Positions 3,626 through 39,515 of a DNA stretch of 64,000 nt are shown here, piece after piece. The position numbers and the translations under genes were made by a program. Below the pieces are notes generated by a model that searched no databases, was not told where the DNA came from, and saw only the letters and a program-made list of their open reading frames with translations. How positions within the stretch are numbered: position 1 is the stretch's first letter; every line of letters starts with the position of its first letter. The DNA is from Candidatus Bathyarchaeia archaeon (lineage in GTDB: Archaea > Thermoproteota > Bathyarchaeia > Bathyarchaeales > Bathycorpusculaceae): NCBI GenBank assembly GCA_038727135.1, contig JAVYWL010000004.1, positions 64,001 to 128,000 of the forward strand, read 5' to 3'.

Positions 3626-5575
3626 TTAAGCTTCAGCCTTTTCTTCCTTTTCGAGGAAACCGGTTAAGAATATTGCATATTCACATGGGTGTTCATTTTG
3701 TAGTAGGGACTTTATGATTTTTATTTTCCCTTTCTTTCCGTGACTCACCCTTGAGATTATGTATTCGATCGTTTTTTTGCGGAGGCTGCAGAGCCACGTT
3801 TTCTGTCCCGTTTTTACAAGTTTGTAATAGGGACAGCTTTTGTATTTGAGGGTGAAACCCCCTTCAAAATATTCTATTTCAACTTCTATGCCGAGTTCTC
3901 TGTACATGTCTGTAATTCTTTCACCAACCTCCCTTATTGTCCATGGATAATCGTCCGGGAATAGCTCGTCAAGTTGTTCCTTTTCTATGGCGAACGCTTC
4001 CTCCACAGAGTTGCATGACATGCCTTCGATCAATGTTTGCATAAGCTTTTTCCGTGGCAATGGTTCAAGTATAGGCTTTTCCAAAAGTTTTAGTTTGAAA
4101 CTTAGGAGATTTTGGAAGGTTGTTGTCGTTATTTCATAGCCTAACTCTCTAAACATGGATTCTATCAGAACTCTTTGACTGTTCATTACGAGGGGATCTA
4201 TACGCTTAAAAATTATGGTGAAATGTTCATCATCCACGAAGCGAACCTCAGCATCTGGCTGGGTTGCATTAATATTTTTGAGGATGAAATTTTTGGCGAG
4301 TCTCTTAATCCTTTCAGGGTCGTTTCTTGCTAACATGCGGATGGCATTAGATATGCGGGTCCCGGTTACACGATATATCTCCTCAAACTTCCGCTTATCG
4401 CTTTCATAAACTTTTAAGGCGAAGGAATTGAAGAGGTCACGTGGGACAGGAATAACATCCAAGAATTGTTTGCCAATAACTTGGAAAAGGCTTAACTCAG
4501 CCAGCTGGTCGAGGAGGCTTTGGTCTTCCGCCCCCACATACTGAATTGTCATGTTAACTGTAGTGTGTTCTGTCGTGTAGTTCAAAGTCTTCCATCCGCG
4601 AGTCGCCAGCATGACAGATAAGGCTGCTACAGATATCCGAGTTATTGAAGGTAGCGCGGCCTGAAAAACAAGTTCCAAGACGTTTTCATCTTTCTCGATT
4701 AAAACCTTTGCCTGTTTAAACCAGTTCATTTTTACAAACGCGGATAATAATGCTTTCACAAAATCCTTTGGCTCCTTTGGAAACTCGTCTACCCCTAAAA
4801 CAATTCTTGCATCCTCTAAAAGATTGCCCAAATCTGATATTGGCTCTTCCAGATGTTTTTCTGCCCAGCTCATGAAGGCTGGTCCAACAAGCATTAGGGT
4901 ACCCTTAAACAGTCCGGGGGTGACTTTTGCTAGTTCATTTTCAACTTGTTGTTCCAGGAACTCTCCGAACTCTTTCTTCCTTAGGGGGTAAACTTCTGGC
5001 CTCACCATTTTTACGGCTATGTCTTCGCCCATAACGCGAATGTCGAAGTAAACTCCTATTCCTTCCAGTATTGTGGCAGTGTTGAAGGCGACTATTATCG
5101 GCAAACGCTTGAAAACTTTTGGTCTTAAAATTGCTATATTGTCGATTTCGCTATAGGATGGTATTTCATACATGTTTGTGAGATTTCTAATTTCCTCCAA
5201 GATTATGAGGAATTCTTTAAAGTTTGATGGTGGCTTCCAGCTGATGGAGCTTTTGAGAATTTCAATGGTGTTTTTTGCTTCTGCTTTTTGTTCCTTTATA
5301 AAATCCTCAATTGTTTTGTTTCCTATGGCTATTTCTAGGAGGCTGTCTAGGTTTCTTCTGCTAATTGAGGCTAGGTCGAGAGCTTCTTTAAGCTTGGTCT
5401 GCTCGTTTACCTTAGCTTTTATGGCGCAGTCGTCACATGAGCCAACCTTATCCACTCTAAGCAAGGTTTCGAGGGCTTTTTCAAGGGCGCGGCTTTTTGT
5501 GCCATACGTTTTGGCTAGCTCTTCAAGTATTTCATTTGCTTTTCTTGTTATTGTTGTGTGTAGGTGGACAGACAT
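3626..5575 (-). CDS. Putative regulator: N-terminal ribbon-helix-helix-like segment, CxxC, and repeated V4R/MetOD-like domains
   Basis: N-terminus VHLHTTITRKANEILEELAKTYGTKSRALEKAL has a strand-helix-helix pattern; SCDDC; C-terminal KSCPYY...LC...HPCEYAI Cys triad. Confidence 0.55.
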   Translation of the reverse strand: MSVHLHTTITRKANEILEELAKTYGTKSRALEKALETLLRVDKVGSCDDCAIKAKVNEQTKLKEALDLASISRRNLDSLLEIAIGNKTIEDFIKEQKAEAKNTIEILKSSISWKPPSNFKEFLIILEEIRNLTNMYEIPSYSEIDNIAILRPKVFKRLPIIVAFNTATILEGIGVYFDIRVMGEDIAVKMVRPEVYPLRKKEFGEFLEQQVENELAKVTPGLFKGTLMLVGPAFMSWAEKHLEEPISDLGNLLEDARIVLGVDEFPKEPKDFVKALLSAFVKMNWFKQAKVLIEKDENVLELVFQAALPSITRISVAALSVMLATRGWKTLNYTTEHTTVNMTIQYVGAEDQSLLDQLAELSLFQVIGKQFLDVIPVPRDLFNSFALKVYESDKRKFEEIYRVTGTRISNAIRMLARNDPERIKRLAKNFILKNINATQPDAEVRFVDDEHFTIIFKRIDPLVMNSQRVLIESMFRELGYEITTTTFQNLLSFKLKLLEKPILEPLPRKKLMQTLIEGMSCNSVEEAFAIEKEQLDELFPDDYPWTIREVGERITDMYRELGIEVEIEYFEGGFTLKYKSCPYYKLVKTGQKTWLCSLRKKTIEYIISRVSHGKKGKIKIIKSLLQNEHPCEYAIFLTGFLEKEEKAEA

Positions 5576-5616
5576 GGCGCCTCACGTGTTTACCTATTTA
5601 GAGGCCGCTTTTAAAT

Positions 5617-5653
5617 ATGTTCACATTTCTCAGAAAAATGTACACATGAACAC
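5617..5653. promoter_or_regulatory. ATGTWCA(C) repeat cluster upstream of the RHH-like gene
   Basis: ATGTTCAC 5617, ATGTACAC 5638, ATGAACAC 5646. Confidence 0.45.
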
Positions 5654-5669
5654 ACAGAAAAATAGGGGG

Positions 5670-7448
5670 TTATCTTTGTACTAGCAAAGGTTCAATTCGT
5701 GTAAGTTTTGTTCCTTTTCTTGTCATGAGGGCGTCAGCGACTCTTTTTACAGCCAACATGTAGGCGGCTACACGCATGTTTACATTATACTGTTTTGAAA
5801 TTTCTAGAACATCATAGAAAGCCTTAGTTATCGTTTCCTTCAGCTTGTTCCGCACTTCCTCCTCTGTCCAATAGTAGTTCATCTGGTTCTGCACCTGCTC
5901 AAAGTAGCTGACAATTACACCGCCTGAATTCGCCAGAATGTCTGGTATCACAAATACTCCCTTTTTGAAGAGAATTTCGTCGGCTTCTGGGGTTGTTGGT
6001 CCGTTGGCTCCTTCGGCTATTATTTTTGCTTTTATTTTGTCTGCGTTTGCCTTTGTTATCTGATTCTCTAAGGCTGCCGGCACCAAAATATCGCATTCTA
6101 ATTCTAACAGTTGTTCGTTTGTTATGAATGTGCTTTCAGGGTAATCAACCACCGAGCCTGTTCTGTTTTTGTGTTCAAGCACTTTTTCCGGGTCTAGCCC
6201 GTTTGAGTTGTATATTCCGCCTTTTGAGTCTGAAACTGCTATAATTTTGCATCCAACCTCGTGCAGGAGGCGTGCCGCATGATATCCAACATTTCCATAG
6301 CCTTGCACAGCTACTGTTGCGCCATTTAGGTTTATTCCTAGATGTTTAGCGGCTTCTATCACTGTGTACATTAAGCCTCTTGAAGTTGCCTCGCTTCTTC
6401 CGCGGGAACCGCCAACACTGACGGGTTTTCCTGTTACAACTCCGAAGGCTGGGTAGCCGACGATTTCGCTGTATTCATCCATTATCCAGGCCATTGTTTG
6501 GGCGTCTGTGTAAACATCCGGCGCCGGCACATCGATGTTTGGACCTATAAATTTCGCTATAGTCCGTACATACCCTCTTGTTAGACGTTCCAATTCGGCC
6601 TTGGACATTTCCTTGGGGTTGCATCTGATTCCGCCTTTAGCGCCTCCTAGCGGTAGTCCTACAACCGCTGTTTTCCATGTCATCCATGCCGCTAATGCCG
6701 TAACCTCGTCTAATGTTAGCTCTGGGTGGTATCGGATGCCGCCCTTAGTTGGACCTAATGCATCGTTATATTGTACACGGTAACCCGTAAAAACTTGAAT
6801 GCTCCCGTCATCCATAACCACTGGAATATTAACTATTAGGGTGCGCATAGGACGCTTCAAAATTTCATGGATGCCAGGATCAAGCTTCAGTTTTTCGGCT
6901 GCAATGTCCAACTGTTTAAGGGCGGCTTCATAAGGGTTTGGCGTAACAGCTAAGGGCGCCAAAGTATCTATTTTAACAAATACGGCTGTCTGGAGTTTCT
7001 CGACAAGATTTGTTAGAATTTGTCTCGCCACTTCGCCGTTTCCTTCTTTGCTTCCGTAAAACCAAATGTAGGTTTCAGCAACGGCATCCTCCCTTCTTGA
7101 AAACATTGAACCAACGGGCACCATTTTCGGATTTTCACAGAAATAGTCCACGAGGATCCGCAGCATGTTCAACTCTTCAGAGGTTAATGGCAGAAGCTTT
7201 CTTATAGGCTCTGGCGCCTTAACATGGACATATTCGGCTTCCGTGATCTTCTTTTGGAGTTCTTCAAAAACTTTTAGAGAGTCTTCGATTGGTATTCCAA
7301 AGTTTTCTGTGTATGTTGTTAGAAGGGCATAGTGGGCGGTTGTATAACTTTCTATCTTTGCGGTCAGCTCAGGTTTTTCAGCGAAGAAGTCCACCATTAG
7401 TTTAAGCATTCCTAGCTCTCTTGCGGAAAGCTCCACAGAGTTTAACAT
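5670..7448 (-). CDS. gdhA: Glu/Leu/Phe/Val dehydrogenase (GDH) with ~170-aa duplicated N-terminal extension
   Basis: [36 protein letters not shown]; probable start ATG 7448 after GGGGTGGA (ORF track starts at TTG 7499). Confidence 0.92.
5979..6083. repeat. 105-bp perfect inverted repeat, copy 1 (partner 11032-11136)
   Basis: Reverse complement matched base for base by manual alignment. Confidence 0.92.
6478..6533. repeat. 56-bp perfect inverted repeat, copy 1 (partner 10582-10637)
   Basis: Reverse complement is identical: GATGTGCCGGCGCCGGATG...TGGATAATGGA. Confidence 0.92.
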
Positions 7449-7491
7449 TTCATTTTCCACCCCTTCTTGTTCTAGAGCCTTAATATGACTT

Positions 7492-7590
7492 ATGTTCAAC
7501 TATAGAAATATTATGTTCATAATGTACACAACTGTACATCATTAAACCATCCGAAGCGACGACGTAACATTTTTAATGACGTATGTGAAC
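7492..7590. promoter_or_regulatory. Divergent promoter region with ATGTWCA repeat array
   Basis: ATGTTCA 7492 and 7513, ATGTACAC 7522, CTGTACA 7532, inverted GTGAAC 7585. Confidence 0.5.
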
Positions 7591-7610
7591 CTTACACCCG
7601 GTGCATTTCA

Positions 7611-8363
7611 TTGTCCAATAACCCTAGTGAAAAACAAGTCTTCTACTCTACAGGAGTTAGAGGACTTGACAAAATCCTTGGTGGCGGATTGTTATTAGGT
7701 GAAAATGTTTTATGGGAGGTTGAATCTGGAACATTTGCAAGGGAATTCTTATACTCTTTTATGCGGCAAGGCATAATTGAAGGGAACCAAGTTATATATT
7801 TGGAATTTATTTATCCCCCTCAAGCAATTATGCTACAATTAGAGCCATTAACCAAAACTTTGCCAGAAGGTTGGGAAAAGAAACTCCTAGTTTTGGATTG
7901 TTTTTCAGAAGCCGCAGGGCAAGGCGAATTAATATTTAACGACTTTTATGATAAAGCCCCAAGCTGGATTAGAAAAGTTCCAAGCTCAAAGGATCCGGAT
8001 CGTTTCCATCACTTCTTTGGAAGAATTGAAAGGGAATTTGTGACGCCTGGAACTCGACTTATTTTCAACAGTTTATCAATAATGGAGCACAATTGGGGAA
8101 GGGATGCTGTTAAAGCATTCTTTGGTCATGTTTGTCCGGCACTGTATGCTTACCAAACTCTCGCCTACTGGACCATGGCTAAAAATGCCCATCCCAAAGA
8201 GTTCTGCGCCCTAATAGAGCACATGACACAAGTGGTTATAGACCTCACTAGACAGGAGAATAAGAACTTTTTATGGATTAAGAAGGCTGGCGGAAGATAT
8301 AATCCCCAAACCTACACAAGACGAGAGTACACGGTCGATGGGTTGAATATAGAGATTCACTAG
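7611..8363 (+). CDS. KaiC/RAD55-like single-domain protein with degenerate ATPase motifs
   Basis: STGVRGLDKILGGGL N-terminus; Walker A position reads EVESGTFAREF; Walker B position reads LIFNSLS. Confidence 0.8.
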   Translation: MSNNPSEKQVFYSTGVRGLDKILGGGLLLGENVLWEVESGTFAREFLYSFMRQGIIEGNQVIYLEFIYPPQAIMLQLEPLTKTLPEGWEKKLLVLDCFSEAAGQGELIFNDFYDKAPSWIRKVPSSKDPDRFHHFFGRIEREFVTPGTRLIFNSLSIMEHNWGRDAVKAFFGHVCPALYAYQTLAYWTMAKNAHPKEFCALIEHMTQVVIDLTRQENKNFLWIKKAGGRYNPQTYTRREYTVDGLNIEIH

Positions 8364-8370
8364 CCTTCTA

Positions 8371-8388
8371 ATGTACAAGAATGTTCAT
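8371..8388. promoter_or_regulatory. ATGTACA/ATGTTCA direct repeat, 10-bp spacing, upstream of the glutamate synthase-like gene
   Basis: ATGTACAA 8371, ATGTTCAT 8381. Confidence 0.45.
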
Positions 8389-8473
8389 TTTTTTGTTACT
8401 TTTAGGATAACATTTAAATGTGGACGAAATTTTAAACCTTCCACACGGTTTACAAACGTAAAGGTGAAAATGT

Positions 8474-10081
8474 ATGACGGAACGAGTTTTCAGAAACAGC
8501 TCATACCTAAATGCAAAATCAACAACGGGAACAACAACCCGCGTCAAGGACACAAGCCCCACAAGCGGCATGTGCCCCATATGCATCCGCGACTGCCCAA
8601 TACTCTGCGAAATAGGATTGTCAGCATTTAGAGGAAGAGAGGCTCTCTATCCAGAACCAGTGCAATTCGGCTTCAGCACCGCCGGAGCCTTAAAGGACTT
8701 CGGCTTAGACTGGTCCCACTTTAACATACAAGCAAGCCTCTTCGAAGCCCATGGAATAAAGGAAGACCCGGATTTGGCATTGTTCCCCAACGTGAACATA
8801 GAAACAAAAGTTGGAGGCATACCGCTTAAAGTCCCCATATTATGTGGCGCTTTCGGCTCTACTGATGTTGCGAGGCTGAATTGGGAAGGCTTAGCCATAG
8901 GCACAGCCCTCTCAGGCGCCATGATAATCGTAGGCGAAAATGTTTGCGGCATGGACCCAGAGGCCCAATTCACAAACGGCAAAGTAACCTACTCAAAGGA
9001 GCTAAAGCGCAGAGTCGACCTATTCAGAAAATTCTGGGATGGAAAATACGGTGAAATAGCCGTTCAAACAAATGTTGAAGACCAGAGGCTTGGCGTAGAC
9101 GTTTACGCCATATCAAAGCTAGAAGTCAATGTCATAGAGAGAAAGTGGGGACAAGGAGCAAAAGCCATAGGCGGCGAAGTCCGCGTAAGAGACCTTGAAA
9201 GAGCCATAATGCTAAAGAAAAGAGGCTACATAGTAATCCCAGACCCAGAGGACCCAGCAGTACAGCAGGCCTTCAAAGACGGCGTATTCAAATCCTTTGA
9301 AAGGCACAGCAGAGTTGGCATACCAAAGGAGAAAAACGTGATAGAGGATGTAGAATGGCTGAGGAAACAGGGAGCAAAACATGTAACTCTAAAAACAGGC
9401 GCTTACAGGCCGTCAGCAGTGGCATACACCTTGAAAATAGCTTCTGAGGCAAAGATTGATGCTGTATACTTTGACGGGGCGGGCGGCGGCACTGGCATGA
9501 GCCCTGTTCCAATGATGGACGAGATGGGTATTCCAACAGTTTATCTAGAAGCCATTGTGCTTAAGTGCGCCCAAATATTGAAGAAGAAAGGCCGCTATGT
9601 GCCGGATATAATCATGGCTGGAGGCTTCATAAACGAAACTCAAATTTTCAAGGCCATAGCCATGAGCAACTTTGGAGATGGACCATTTGTGAAAGCCGTT
9701 TTGATGGGCCGTTCTCCACTTACTGCTGTGATGAAGGCAAGCTACTTCAAACAGTTGGCTGAAGAGGGAAAACTTCCAAAGGCTTTTGCCGACAAGTTTG
9801 GCGCAACTCCAGAGAAGTTCTTCATAGCTGTTCCAGAGCTAAAGGCGAAGTATGGAGAACGTTTCAAGGAAATCCCGTGGGAAGCTGTAGCCCTATACAC
9901 TTACTTGACGGACCGCATAGGTGTTGGGCTAAAGCAGCTATTGGCTGGCGCAAGGAAATGGCGACTAGACCTGATCAACAGAAACGACCTAATGAGCCTC
10001 TCGGAGCTTGCAGCCAAAGTAACCGGTATACCATTAGCCCACGAGGCAGAAGCAGACGCCATAGAAAGAATTTTAGACTAG
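8474..10081 (+). CDS. FMN-binding glutamate synthase family protein (stand-alone, Fe-S)
   Basis: CPICIRDCPILC, KWGQGAKAIGGE, DGAGGGTG, IMAGG; SD AAGGTGA upstream. Confidence 0.88.
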   Translation: MTERVFRNSSYLNAKSTTGTTTRVKDTSPTSGMCPICIRDCPILCEIGLSAFRGREALYPEPVQFGFSTAGALKDFGLDWSHFNIQASLFEAHGIKEDPDLALFPNVNIETKVGGIPLKVPILCGAFGSTDVARLNWEGLAIGTALSGAMIIVGENVCGMDPEAQFTNGKVTYSKELKRRVDLFRKFWDGKYGEIAVQTNVEDQRLGVDVYAISKLEVNVIERKWGQGAKAIGGEVRVRDLERAIMLKKRGYIVIPDPEDPAVQQAFKDGVFKSFERHSRVGIPKEKNVIEDVEWLRKQGAKHVTLKTGAYRPSAVAYTLKIASEAKIDAVYFDGAGGGTGMSPVPMMDEMGIPTVYLEAIVLKCAQILKKKGRYVPDIIMAGGFINETQIFKAIAMSNFGDGPFVKAVLMGRSPLTAVMKASYFKQLAEEGKLPKAFADKFGATPEKFFIAVPELKAKYGERFKEIPWEAVALYTYLTDRIGVGLKQLLAGARKWRLDLINRNDLMSLSELAAKVTGIPLAHEAEADAIERILD

Positions 10082-10155
10082 CCCCCTCCCTTCTTTTTCT
10101 TCCAGCTTAACAGCCAACCTTTTAAGGCTTTTCAGAATAGTAGTTTTGGAGGTAA

Positions 10156-11412
10156 ATGCTTATGGAAAAGAGCTACTCCGCCCTAGATACCGCGCTGGAA
10201 CAGTTGAGAATAGCCGCAGAAAAACTTGAACTTGACCCTGGGCTGCATGAGATGCTTAAATATCCAAAAAGGACGCTTACGGTTTCTGTAAACATTAAAA
10301 TGGACGATGGCACAATCAAAACGTTCCTAGGCTGCCGTGTTCAACACAACGATGCGAGGGGACCCTTTAAAGGTGGCATAAGATACCACCCAAACGTAAC
10401 CTTGGACGAGGTTACGGCGTTAGCCATGTGGATGACTTGGAAATGCGCTGTCGTCGACATCCCATATGGAGGAGCTAAAGGAGGAGTTTGCTGTAACCCA
10501 AAGGAAATGTCCAAAGGCGAACTTGAAAGGCTAACAAGGCGATACGTAAGCCTAATTTTAGACCTAATTGGACCATATCGTGATGTGCCGGCGCCGGATG
10601 TTTACACAGACGCCCAAACAATGGCCTGGATAATGGACACCTATAGCCAGTTTAAGGGTTACAGCGTCCCTGAATGTGTTACCGGGAAGCCTTTAAGTGT
10701 TGGAGGTTCTGAAGGAAGGGTCGAAGCCACATCCCTTGGTGTTATGTTCTGCGCGAGGGAAGCTGCAAAAATCCTCGGTTTAAAAATGAAAGATGCAAGA
10801 TTTGTGGTTCAAGGGTTTGGCAACGTAGGATGGAACGCCGCAAAAATAGCCTACGATTGGGGATGTAAAATAATAGGTGTAAGCGACTCCAGCGGAGGAA
10901 TCTATTGCAAGGAAGGATTAAACCCCTACAAGGTTTATGAGCATAAGGCGAAAACAGGTTCCGTCCTAAACTTTGAAGGATGCAAAAACATCACTAACGA
11001 GGAGTTGTTGGAGTTAGAATGTGACATTCTTGTGCCGGCAGCCTTAGAGAATCAGATAACAAAGGCAAACGCAGACAAAATAAAAGCAAAAATAATAGCC
11101 GAAGGAGCCAACGGACCAACAACCCCAGAAGCCGACAAGGTGCTCAATGAAAAAGGTGTGTTCCTAATTCCAGACATTTTAGCAAACTCCGGCGGCGTCA
11201 CAGTAAGCTATTTTGAATGGGTTCAAAACTTAACAAGGGAGCACTGGACCTTAGAGGAAGTGAACCAGAAACTTGAAAGAAAAATGGTAAAGGCATTTAA
11301 CGACGTCTACAAAACCTCAAAGGACGAGGAAGAACCAATGCGAACAGCTGCCCTAATGCTTGGAGTGGGACGGGTGGCTGAAGCAATAAAGACTTTAGGC
11401 TTGTGGCCTTAA
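10156..11412 (+). CDS. gdhA: Glutamate dehydrogenase (canonical length)
   Basis: [38 protein letters not shown]. Confidence 0.95.
   Translation: MLMEKSYSALDTALEQLRIAAEKLELDPGLHEMLKYPKRTLTVSVNIKMDDGTIKTFLGCRVQHNDARGPFKGGIRYHPNVTLDEVTALAMWMTWKCAVVDIPYGGAKGGVCCNPKEMSKGELERLTRRYVSLILDLIGPYRDVPAPDVYTDAQTMAWIMDTYSQFKGYSVPECVTGKPLSVGGSEGRVEATSLGVMFCAREAAKILGLKMKDARFVVQGFGNVGWNAAKIAYDWGCKIIGVSDSSGGIYCKEGLNPYKVYEHKAKTGSVLNFEGCKNITNEELLELECDILVPAALENQITKANADKIKAKIIAEGANGPTTPEADKVLNEKGVFLIPDILANSGGVTVSYFEWVQNLTREHWTLEEVNQKLERKMVKAFNDVYKTSKDEEEPMRTAALMLGVGRVAEAIKTLGLWP
10582..10637. repeat. 56-bp inverted repeat, copy 2
   Basis: Identical to the reverse complement of 6478-6533. Confidence 0.92.
11032..11136. 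repeat. 105-bp inverted repeat, copy 2
   Basis: Identical to the reverse complement of 5979-6083. Confidence 0.92.
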
Positions 11413-37319: not shown

Positions 37320-37715
37320 TTAAGTTTTTGATAAAGGATGGCATGTGGCGCACTTGCACTCCTTGAGGGTTGGCAGGTCTTCTTGATGAAGTTTGCAGAT
37401 AACCTTTTCATACCTTATGGTGGCGCATATTTCGCAAAGCCTTTCTATGATGCTTTCTGGTGTTGCGCCTTCTTTGGCGAGGGTTTCAGCAAGCTTTGAT
37501 ATCATTTTCATGACGTCTTCGGATTGGGCTATTTCGTTTGCGAGTGTTGCTCCTCTTTCACCTTTGAAATATTGGGTTATGGCGGCTGGGGTTAGCTCCA
37601 TTTTTTCAGAAGCCTCAATTTTCCGCATGTTATGTTTTTCTATAAGCTCTTTGGTTACCAGCACTCTTATTGCTGGGAGGAGATATTTTACTACAATTAC
37701 GCATGGTGGTTTCAA
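37320..37715 (-). CDS. HTH transcriptional regulator with Cys-rich C-terminus (COG2522-like)
   Basis: MKPPC, LTPAAITQYFKGERG, CEIC...CKLH...CKCATC. Confidence 0.85.
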   Translation of the reverse strand: MKPPCVIVVKYLLPAIRVLVTKELIEKHNMRKIEASEKMELTPAAITQYFKGERGATLANEIAQSEDVMKMISKLAETLAKEGATPESIIERLCEICATIRYEKVICKLHQEDLPTLKECKCATCHPLSKT

Positions 37716-37755
37716 GGTTTTTCCCTAGTTATTTTTGGCGGTAGGTTTATATATT

Positions 37756-37790
37756 TTTAACGGCGTTAAATAAGTTTTAACGGTGTTAAA
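37756..37790. promoter_or_regulatory. Tandem palindromic operator TTTAAC-N3-GTTAAA x2
   Basis: Copies at 37756-37770 and 37776-37790, between TATA (TTTATATA 37746-37753) and ATG 37791. Confidence 0.8.
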
Positions 37791-39515
37791 ATGGCTGAAA
37801 TTCACCTAATCAAACTAGAAGAACTCAACGAGCACGAAGAAACAGACCCAGAACACTTAAAAGAACTAATACGACAAATAGCCGCAGATAAAATCCTAAA
37901 GCACCCAATAGTTGTCGACGAAAAAACAAACACGATACTGGATGGAGAACACCGCTTCAATGCCCTCAAAAGCCTTGGATGCAAAAGAATCCCGGTGATT
38001 TACGTGGATTATAGCTCTCCAAACATAGTGGTTCAAACATGGAGAAATGATTACAACCTAACGAAGAGGGACGTAATAGAAGCAGCCCTATCTAGGAAGC
38101 GTTTTCCACCTAAAACAACATGCCACATGATAAAGAACAGCGAAACCCTATCGCATATATCGTCAATTGAAAAAAGGGTTGACGTCCCCTTAGAAGTGCT
38201 GAAAAGCGAACTCACACTTACACCCATAAAGCGCATAAAAGCCGCCATGAATGTTGAACTCGCAGATGTTCTACCAACATATACTAGATTCCTTAAAACA
38301 GAAGTCGTCGATGTCCCCCTAATAATGGATAAAAGAACAGGCGTTTTAATACATGGCTATGAAGCCTTTCAAGCACTCGACCTACTTTCGGTAGAGAAAG
38401 CACCCACCTTTAGAGTGAACTTGAAGGAAGTGGAAATCAAAGCATCAAACATGGAAAACTTTTCTAAGGAGAGAATTATTAAGGCTGGGATTAAGGGGCC
38501 AAAACTTCCACCAAAAAGTTTCACTCTTCTATCAGAACCAGTCAAAATTAACGTTCCACTGAAAAAGTTGATGACCAAAAGGAGGCAAAGCCGCAGGGTG
38601 CTAAAAGTTTACAATAGCACTTTAGAACTGCTTTACGAGGGTTGGCCGACCCCGCTCGTAAAGTTAAATTCCCTTTCTTCCGCTTCCCGGAGTGTTTGGG
38701 CTAAGCTTGAATGCTACAATCCCTTCAGTAACAGCGTAAAAGACAGAATAGGCTGGGCCATGATTAAAGAGGCGGTGGAAAACGGAAAACTTAAAACAGC
38801 TTTGTATGAGGCAACATCCACAAACACTGGAATAGCCCTAACCTCCATAGCCAACATCCTCGGCGTGAAGACAAGGCTTTACATACCAAAAACCATACAG
38901 AGGGCAAGCGACACTTACCTAAAAGTTCTAGGAGCAGAAGTTGTAAGGCTTCCGGTAGGCCTAACCGTCGAGGCAATAAGCCAAGTAGAAAAGGAGGCAA
39001 AAACCGATAAGGCCGCCCACTTAAACCAGTTCGAAAACGACGCCAACTTCAAAGTCCACCTAAAATACACAGCCAGAGAAATAGATGAACAGCTAAACAG
39101 TCGAGGCTTAAAGCCCACATGCATAATCGGAGGACTTGGAACATCAGGACACATGAGCGCCATATCCCACTACTTCAAAACCAAATACGGAGACAGCGTA
39201 AAAATTGTGGGCGTCCAACCAGCCCAAAACGAGGTTATCCCGGGCATAAGGCGAATAGAAACCGGCATGAAATGGTTTCATAACGCAACTTTCGACGAAA
39301 TAGTAGACGTGAAACAGACAGAAGCCATAGAAGCCGCAATAGAATTAGCGCGAAAAGAGGGTCTCATAATAGGGTTAAGCTCCGGAGCTGTTGCCCACGC
39401 CTTTCAAAAAACCGCCGGGGAAAAAGGCGTATACGTTCTAATTTTCCCAGACAGCGGATACAAATACGTGGAACAGTTCGAAAAATACTTGGCAAGTGTT
39501 CCGCCGAAAAACTAG
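37791..39515 (+). CDS. SerK/ParB-like serine kinase fused to PLP-dependent cysteine synthase (O-phosphoserine sulfhydrylase type)
   Basis: N-terminal HEE, LDGEHR, FPPKTTCH and a second ParB-like repeat; C-terminal WPTPLVKL, NPFSNSVKDR, GTSGH. Confidence 0.82.
   Translation: MAEIHLIKLEELNEHEETDPEHLKELIRQIAADKILKHPIVVDEKTNTILDGEHRFNALKSLGCKRIPVIYVDYSSPNIVVQTWRNDYNLTKRDVIEAALSRKRFPPKTTCHMIKNSETLSHISSIEKRVDVPLEVLKSELTLTPIKRIKAAMNVELADVLPTYTRFLKTEVVDVPLIMDKRTGVLIHGYEAFQALDLLSVEKAPTFRVNLKEVEIKASNMENFSKERIIKAGIKGPKLPPKSFTLLSEPVKINVPLKKLMTKRRQSRRVLKVYNSTLELLYEGWPTPLVKLNSLSSASRSVWAKLECYNPFSNSVKDRIGWAMIKEAVENGKLKTALYEATSTNTGIALTSIANILGVKTRLYIPKTIQRASDTYLKVLGAEVVRLPVGLTVEAISQVEKEAKTDKAAHLNQFENDANFKVHLKYTAREIDEQLNSRGLKPTCIIGGLGTSGHMSAISHYFKTKYGDSVKIVGVQPAQNEVIPGIRRIETGMKWFHNATFDEIVDVKQTEAIEAAIELARKEGLIIGLSSGAVAHAFQKTAGEKGVYVLIFPDSGYKYVEQFEKYLASVPPKN

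Follow-up and report, generated by a model that had tools for sequence, protein, structure and literature searches.

In Bacillus subtilis, GltA is reported to bind the glutamate dehydrogenase (GDH) GudB via its central domain and the loop linking its N-terminal nucleophile (Ntn) and central domains (10.1101/2021.04.12.439528). In Thermus thermophilus, GdhA is described as catalytically inactive and TTC1249 as an AMP-sensing accessory protein (PMC9570180). TrmBL1 of Pyrococcus furiosus is reported to activate from sites upstream of the TFB-recognition element (BRE) and TATA box and to repress from downstream ones (PMC4706686), and domains with a RecA/KaiC fold without Walker A (iKaiC, MEDS and DUF835) are described in archaeal signalling proteins (PMC5847659). 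Here we analyze a locus at positions 3626–11,412 of a 64,000-nucleotide stretch (the window) from Candidatus Bathyarchaeia archaeon (GCA_038727135.1, contig JAVYWL010000004.1, positions 64,001–128,000). It encodes a putative ribbon-helix-helix (RHH) regulator, an extended GDH (GDH1), an inactivated KaiC-like protein (iKaiC), a glutamate-synthase-like flavoprotein (GltS-like) and a second GDH (GDH2). The first three genes form a conserved, apparently unpublished regulatory cassette, and its predicted operator boxes extend to the gltS-like gene.

A sequence-only reading of the window had taken the five genes as one unit that switches glutamate synthesis and degradation by transcriptional control together with a protein complex. 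All five open reading frames were found where that reading placed them, between rfcS and gins-mcm. A likely TATA box precedes each gene and oligo-T tracts lie 3′ of GDH1 and of GltS-like; the genes are therefore separate transcription units. The relatives of the locus carry the label Bathyarchaeia.

The distribution of the genes was followed across one set of genomes of the class, 201 in number. Eight of them have the regulator (a fragment in G124) and seven the GDH1 extension; iKaiC gives a match at E ≤ 1e-15 in 8, of which six carry intact orthologues, G008 a pseudogene and one only a distant hit. Intact copies of the regulator, the GDH1 extension and iKaiC lie in the same genomes, except in G134, where the contig ends, and in G124 and G008, which hold decayed remnants. 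Among 35 iKaiC loci that were fetched, all three cassette genes are full-length in 27 and all five genes in 21. The other eight loci comprise four contig edges, one locus frameshifted throughout and three in which the whole cassette has decayed or been lost while gltS-like stays. In G037, the most distant genome, all three cassette genes are retained but differently ordered, and the divergent promoter carries boxes. Outside the class, the only regulator match among 251 genomes of the phylum is a fragment at E 7e-4. GltS-like matches are found in 93 of the 201 genomes (weak hits to ordinary GltB2 included) and GDH in 141; eight listed genomes (G032, G082, G121, G145, G190, G014, G044 and G056) have gltS-like with no GDH match. 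The co-occurrence, the joint decay and the G037 arrangement together identify a core of three genes, with gltS-like as a recruited target. The proposed five-gene unit thus holds for the three genes that are gained and lost together, whereas GltS-like is a widespread regulated target and GDH2 only a neighbour. The same comparison of gene neighbourhoods in Bathyarchaeia bears out co-occurrence of the cassette and not of GltS-like with GDH, which are often found without each other.

The DNA motif noted earlier in three intergenic regions is present in all three as a 6-bp box, TGWACA/TGTWCA, in nine copies (Table 1). A 10-bp palindrome, ATGT-NN-ACAT, was considered as the motif and dropped, the conserved unit being the 6-bp box. 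On its own, the box shows no enrichment (ATGTWCA, 20 seen vs 14.75 expected). The tandem pair with a 10-bp period is enriched, with 2 seen, both in this block, vs 0.04 expected (0 of 100 shuffles), and all three 9–10-bp box pairs of the 1.55-Mb genome fall inside the block. Where the regulator is present, 30 of 31 loci have at least two boxes before gltS-like, compared with 6 of 39 where it is absent, after four rows without anchor sequence were dropped. Of these six regulator-less loci, five are either remnants of the cassette or a contig cut short (two represent one genome), and in the 34 regulator-less loci left when these five are set aside the tandem pair before gltS-like is found in none. 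Together these data are strong sequence evidence for co-regulation, and we consider it quite likely that the regulator binds the boxes. In the rearranged locus L104, where gdh2 and gltS-like have moved across the cassette, the two boxes of gltS-like are retained.

The boxes keep characteristic distances from the likely TATA boxes. At the regulator gene they lie at −9 or −8 (33 of 34), with a further box at about −29; at gdh1 they lie at −30, −20, −11 and +10 (26–29 of 31) and at gltS-like at −42 and −32 (20 of 25), while at iKaiC the offsets vary from −36 to −51. Genomes that lack the regulator conserve the gltS-like TATA box as well. The gdh2 upstream region has its own TATA box, and a box is present in only 1 of 30 gdh2 upstream regions of relatives, which makes GDH2 a neighbour rather than a member. 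Boxes lie over the likely TATA/BRE elements of the regulator gene and GDH1 but 30–40 nt upstream at GltS-like, and this suggests a dual repressor/activator. Under the position rule described for TrmBL1, the regulator would repress gdh1 and its own gene and activate gltS-like; we lean slightly towards such a dual sign of control. glnA was also considered as a regulon member and set aside, since the box pair upstream of it in this genome is not kept in regulator-bearing relatives. In this genome glnA lies upstream of the window, divergent from an Lrp/AsnC-like gene (L199 505-2568); the layout and a shared TATTTAACATTTG element are found in many relatives.

RNA evidence came from one stranded hot-spring metatranscriptome (run X6; 463 reads, mixed strains), in which each gene is represented on its sense strand. 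Sense depth was 18–42 for gltS-like, 0–2.4 for gdh1, 0–0.45 for iKaiC, 1.2–3.3 for the regulator and 0.2–1.6 for gdh2. The recruitment bias of gltS-like vs gdh1 is only about 1–2-fold and therefore cannot explain the excess of gltS-like over gdh1; it may explain part of the excess over gdh2. The X6 pattern fits the dual-switch model.

Table 1. Features of the locus, in window coordinates.
Feature	Position	Strand	Description
Regulator gene	3626..5575	-	649 aa; RHH-like N-terminus (residues 1-42), invariant C47/C50, four tandem V4R/XylR-N/H-NOX-like domains, the last with invariant C581, C596, H629 and C631
Likely regulator TATA box	5610..5615	-	inferred
Operator boxes, regulator promoter	5618..5652		predicted; 5618-5623 (over BRE position), 5639-5644, 5647-5652
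GDH1 gene	5670..7448	-	592 aa; Glu/Leu/Phe/Val dehydrogenase, catalytically intact and extended at its N-terminus
GDH1 N-terminal extension	6951..7448	-	pair of alpha/beta repeats of ~80 aa each; matches no family and no fold clearly
Four operator boxes	7493..7538		predicted; starts 7493, 7514, 7523, 7533; divergent GDH1/iKaiC promoter, flanking likely GDH1 TATA box (7501-7508, - strand)
Likely iKaiC TATA box	7570..7577	+	inferred
iKaiC gene	7611..8363	+	250 aa; stand-alone ATPase-dead RecA/KaiC-fold domain, homologous to domains that form the N-terminal input of bacterial regulators
Tandem boxes, 10-bp period	8372..8387		predicted; starts 8372, 8382; ~30 and ~40 nt upstream of GltS-like TATA box (8413-8419)
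GltS-like gene	8474..10081	+	535 aa; stand-alone FMN-binding glutamate synthase family protein, invariant C34/C37/C41/C45; regulated target
GDH2 gene	10156..11412	+	glutamate dehydrogenase of ordinary type with its own promoter and without boxes; adjacent to the core but not part of it

The 649-residue regulator matched no family above cut-off. Its structural model (pLDDT 65, pTM 0.33) contains two N-terminal helices after the segment HLHTTI, followed by four alpha/beta domains. The N-terminus shows a pattern that may indicate an RHH domain, namely a putative HLHTTI strand, helices at residues 11–24 and 29–42 and an invariant G25. RHH_3 is matched by one of six N-termini (E 0.031, weak), and the strand is not formed in the monomer model, which is of low confidence there. 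The predicted sites, tandem 6-bp boxes with a 9–10-bp period, are compatible in form with the short tandem subsites of RHH dimers. Residues 364–498 superpose on the sensor domain of DmpR (Z 9.1, root-mean-square deviation 3.3, 125 aligned), PoxR (Z 9.0) and BcsD (Z 9.4), and residues 64–191 and 520–638 reach Z 6.8; the structural relatives of the regulator domains also include TRAPP and H-NOX (Z 6.8–9.4 overall). The last domain matches MetOD1 at E 4e-4, below cut-off, and MetOD1 is described as a V4R/HNOB relative (PMC5847659). In 102 sequences C47 and C50 (CxxC), as well as C581, C596, H629 and C631, are invariant, and only the last domain has a three-cysteine cluster (C581, C596 and C631). 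Foldseek with the regulator gave no hit at E ≤ 0.001, and the four domains have no sequence similarity to one another. The earlier description of an RHH/V4R-like sensor is thus supported for the V4R/XylR-N/H-NOX fold, by the DmpR superposition and the cysteine cluster; for RHH it has the weak match.

GltS-like matches PF01645 above cut-off and is the only PF01645 gene found in the genome (94.7% complete). Its profile matches that of an ordinary GltB2 at 98.6% over 322 columns and the synthase-site motifs are kept (KxxQGAK, K, GGTG and GG); four N-terminal cysteines are invariant. The protein lacks the glutaminase (Ntn), central and GXGXG domains. The genome as a whole, at this completeness, yielded no gene for a GltB glutaminase domain (PF00310), PII, NrpR or Amt, which extends an absence of PII and NrpR that had been noted for the window. 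Ammonia-using reductive amination would be the simplest reading of such a protein. F420-dependent glutamate synthase type III is reported to consist of FrhB10 and GltB2 (PMC9012536); no FrhB-like gene is present among the 18 neighbours scanned. Matches of GltS-like to TAL effectors and designed TIM barrels were discarded as spurious repeats.

GDH1 starts at ATG 7448 and not at TTG 7499, as indicated by a GGTGG ribosome site and by the N-termini of homologues. The extra N-terminal domains seen in the sequence-only reading are confirmed; the extension (~165 residues) is built from two repeats of ~80 residues (hhalign 98%, E 2e-13). Its model (pLDDT 77) has no fold match at Z ≥ 5 among 48,161 chains, the best being Z 4.5 to helix-turn-helix (HTH)-like chains, and Atlas hits reach only 0.76–0.77. 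The catalytic and cofactor motifs TKGG, TWK, GGxKGG, PAPD, GxGxxG and NxGGV are kept in 35 GDH1 and 31 GDH2 sequences and match Thermococcales GDH. The two paralogues are 67% identical, and a quick tree places them in distinct clades. They share an identical 105-nt tract in the cofactor-binding domain (window 5979–6083 and 11032–11136). Within-genome identical tracts of at least 40 nt occur in 15 of 22 loci, and in eight they are longer than any cross-genome tract (maximum 68, median 17), which suggests that the inverted paralogues repeatedly exchange sequence by gene conversion. Inversion between the paralogues was considered and rejected, as none of the loci shows a hybrid arrangement and the reads contain no joint of that kind. 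NfnAB/SudAB-like pairs flank gltS-like in two genomes (L060 7310-9571; L061) and follow gdh1 in G037 (L278 11267-13500).

The lack of catalytic motifs in the KaiC-like protein is borne out in its relatives: Walker A, GxxxxGK[ST], is present in 0 of 101 aligned sequences, and VFNSL replaces Walker B. KaiC homology without a P-loop, fused to or beside signalling outputs, places the protein with iKaiC signalling domains. The subfamily is marked by F..xCPxLY...AYW...H, and K225, R229, H194 and Q207 are conserved across the family. In a profile search of 1.84 billion representatives, all Bathyarchaeal copies fall in one cluster. The next matches (E to 1e-48) are mostly proteins of 410–440 residues in which the domain is N-terminal and fused to XRE-HTH and cupin domains; a word-index search for longer forms found none, and the HMM search did find them. 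Among the 22 scanned of 150 listed matches, other fusions were to GAF-sigma54-Fis, a Ser/Thr kinase, a PAS-histidine kinase and PPDK_N. Named members of the fusions belong to Planctomycetota and Deltaproteobacteria, and members of the bacterial clusters are named Nitrospirota and Thermodesulfobacteriota.

The genomic context of the bacterial type was examined in the best 80 of 554 confirmed relatives from a metagenome scan, 79 of which could be annotated; neighbour counts are lower bounds because many contigs are short. A GltS-like gene (44–53% identical) is present in 23 of the 79 loci, adjacent in 17. GltS-like neighbours are found in 15 of 36 clusters at 90% identity and 6 of 8 at 70%, the clusters merging to two groups at 60%. 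NuoE-like genes occur in 46 loci, NAD synthetase in 8, NrpR in 6, glnA in 4 and GDH in 4, with some nitrogen gene in 29. Neither the archaeal regulator nor a GDH1-type extension was found in the 80 loci. The fusions and their neighbours thus show that bacteria and archaea alike have this dead domain next to one and the same flavoprotein family: in bacteria it is joined to a DNA-binding part, whereas in Bathyarchaeia it is free beside a separate regulator. Since its nearest relatives are N-terminal domains of HTH-cupin regulators, 23 of 79 with a GltS-like gene in the locus, iKaiC is probably a detached sensor of glutamate or nitrogen status; that it signals to the archaeal regulator we suggest only tentatively, as somewhat short of an even chance. 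The bacterial iKaiC-HTH-cupin genes (L118-L197) most often precede a NuoE/NuoF/2Fe-2S module, and 12 loci have both the module and gltS-like; the module is a candidate electron donor of GltS-like. In locus L186, an 868-residue iKaiC-domain protein, of a length typical of iKaiC-PPDK_N fusions, stands beside GDH, NrpR, an iKaiC-HTH gene and gltS-like, and fusions of this type may belong to GDH control.

The explanation that best accounts for these observations, and to which we give about an even chance, is that the cassette put the housekeeping gltS-like gene under its operator as a two-state glutamate switch. The lineage-specific cassette of three genes would have settled upstream of gltS-like and imposed its operator there. 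A dimer of the regulator would contact the TGWACA boxes through its RHH strand. Judged by box position, the bound regulator would repress its own gene and gdh1, where the boxes lie over BRE/TATA, and would activate gltS-like and perhaps iKaiC, where they are phased upstream of TATA. FMN-dependent formation of glutamate from 2-oxoglutarate and free ammonia would be on in one state, with the extra GDH off, and the reverse would apply when glutamate is plentiful. iKaiC would most likely bind a metabolite (2-oxoglutarate, glutamate or a nucleotide) and relay the signal to the V4R-like domains of the regulator, because in bacteria the same domain is fused to a DNA-binding regulator of the same gene family. 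The GDH1 extension could be a docking or feedback domain, the least certain part of the scheme. Binding, sign of control, ligand, reaction direction and all protein contacts are inferred.

Several points weigh against this explanation. The RHH assignment of the regulator N-terminus is a weak one, drawn from a pattern and a single low-scoring match, and a regulator with four ligand-type domains of its own may not need iKaiC. Structure and literature searches found no solved or characterised relative of the GltS-like family. The TATA boxes were placed by patterns of our own, on which the box offsets depend, and kin genomes are not independent. G136 has an intact cassette yet no strict box before gltS-like, and in G037 gltS-like sits elsewhere without boxes; gltS-like is therefore not an obligatory target. 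NuoE/F-like redox genes are the commonest neighbours of the bacterial regulators, so that the signal could be redox instead of glutamate. Only one of four RNA runs was informative, X4 and X5 giving no reads and X3 contigs only, which cannot rank genes; in that run iKaiC RNA is low while gltS-like is high, which speaks against co-activation of iKaiC.

With the same regulon, iKaiC might instead be an accessory subunit of GDH1 that sits on the N-terminal repeats and tunes activity by nucleotide, or GDH1-iKaiC might be a trigger enzyme acting on the regulator. The GDH1 extension and iKaiC are confined to the same genomes and share one divergent promoter even in G037, the four conserved iKaiC residues are compatible with a retained anion pocket, the Thermus AMP-sensing accessory of GDH (PMC9570180) is the best precedent for a subunit, and the action of RocG/GudB on GltC, as described in PMC6794564, is one for a trigger enzyme. 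The bacterial fusions nevertheless lack a GDH1-type extension in all 80 loci, with GDH nearby in only 4 of 79, and their iKaiC domain is wired to DNA-binding or kinase outputs; we regard this alternative as unlikely, though it deserves attention. Most RHH proteins are repressors, and a plain repressor of all boxed promoters (its own gene, gdh1, iKaiC and gltS-like) would give joint induction, for example for glutamate catabolism with GltS-like working oxidatively. At three of the four promoters the boxes are either compatible with repression or a side effect of the divergent layout. Against this stand the gltS-like boxes, fixed 30–40 nt upstream of a TATA box that regulator-less genomes also conserve, and high gltS-like RNA with low gdh1 and iKaiC RNA in one run, which render a plain repressor improbable.

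A cassette that senses redox or NAD(P)H state through cysteine metal sites of the regulator and balances electron flow through glutamate, with nitrogen secondary, would make sense of the invariant CxxC and Cys3His sites, of the NuoE/F-like genes that follow 46 of 79 bacterial regulators, of the NfnAB-like genes after gdh1 in G037 and around gltS-like in L060/L061, and of glnA without conserved boxes. The bacterial regulators, however, repeatedly have NrpR, glnA, gltB pieces and glutamine-type NAD synthetase as neighbours, and both archaeal targets act on glutamate/2-oxoglutarate; a primarily redox role appears more improbable still. The protein complex of the sequence-only reading, in which GltS-like is a counter-enzyme inhibiting a GDH or GDH1 a regulatory subunit of a GDH1/GDH2 heterohexamer, draws on the adjacency of gltS-like and gdh2 in many loci and on the 67% identity and sequence exchange of the two GDHs. 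The GudB-binding parts of GltA are absent from GltS-like and GDH1 is catalytically intact; moreover, gltS-like occurs with no GDH match in the eight genomes listed above, and G136 and G037 keep the cassette without an adjacent GDH2. Such a complex is thus very improbable. The transcriptional half of the proposed switch, by contrast, draws support from the joint occurrence and joint decay of the genes, from footprinting and from a single RNA run.

Other observations were made in and around the window. In G008, MCM (1202 residues) and RfcS (759 residues) are far longer than usual (L033 2280-5888 and 11004-13283), probably because of inteins. At 37320–39515 of the window, a small cysteine-rich HTH-like gene is divergent from one for a 574-residue protein that, by eye, apparently fuses ParB-like N-terminal domains to cysteine synthase.

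Bathyarchaeia are abundant sediment archaea for which almost no gene regulation has been described, and the cassette provides a regulator, an operator, predictions for the sign of control and a putative sensor for them. The bacterial link draws attention to a sensory domain that has not been studied and to a family of glutamate-synthase-like flavoproteins that is widespread and for which no characterised member was found; this family could represent a separate route of ammonia assimilation in anaerobes. More speculatively, and rather doubtfully in our judgement, the iKaiC subfamily could be an unrecognised glutamate/2-oxoglutarate sensing domain, fused to HTH-cupin, sigma54 and kinase outputs in anaerobic bacteria and split off in Bathyarchaeia, there with a four-V4R RHH activator/repressor and GDH1 feedback via a new domain. 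It would control an uncharacterised, ammonia-using, glutaminase-free glutamate synthase and constitute a third nitrogen-sensing system beside PII and NrpR, neither of which was found in this genome. Full-text literature searches showed no description of the module, of this iKaiC subfamily or of iKaiC-HTH-cupin regulators; the KaiC-hub survey (Makarova et al. 2017) or its supplements may list the iKaiC family.

Compared with known systems, the regulator resembles the DmpR/PoxR sensor domain, V4R, H-NOX and MetOD1 in the fold of its repeated domains and in the cysteine cluster of the last, but has four tandem copies behind an RHH-like start and no AAA+ domain. iKaiC shares the RecA/KaiC fold without Walker A with the inactivated signalling domains iKaiC, MEDS and DUF835 as described in PMC5847659; the present subfamily differs in being common to bacterial HTH-cupin, sigma54 and kinase fusions and tied to glutamate-synthase-like genes. 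The position-dependent sign proposed for the regulator parallels TrmBL1, activating upstream of BRE/TATA and repressing downstream, although TrmBL1 is presented as a TrmB-family global sugar regulator with an unrelated fold and a much larger regulon (PMC4706686). As with GudB-GltAB, a GDH lies beside a glutamate-synthase homologue, but the analogy fails because GltS-like lacks the Ntn and central domains, and the loop between them, by which GltA is reported to bind GudB (10.1101/2021.04.12.439528). Two GDH paralogues and a possible accessory sensor recall Thermus GdhA/GdhB with TTC1249; since GDH1, unlike GdhA as reported (PMC9570180), retains all catalytic motifs and both Bathyarchaeal GDHs are intact, this is not such a pair, and the accessory candidate is a KaiC-fold protein. 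The GltC–gltAB–RocG/GudB circuit of B. subtilis, as described in PMC6794564, likewise has one regulator able to activate glutamate synthase genes and to repress, with GDH linked to the circuit. GltC is of the LysR type and the regulatory parts of the two systems have no homology; the Bathyarchaeal locus has instead an RHH/V4R-like regulator, an FMN domain that stands alone, an additional domain on GDH and iKaiC.

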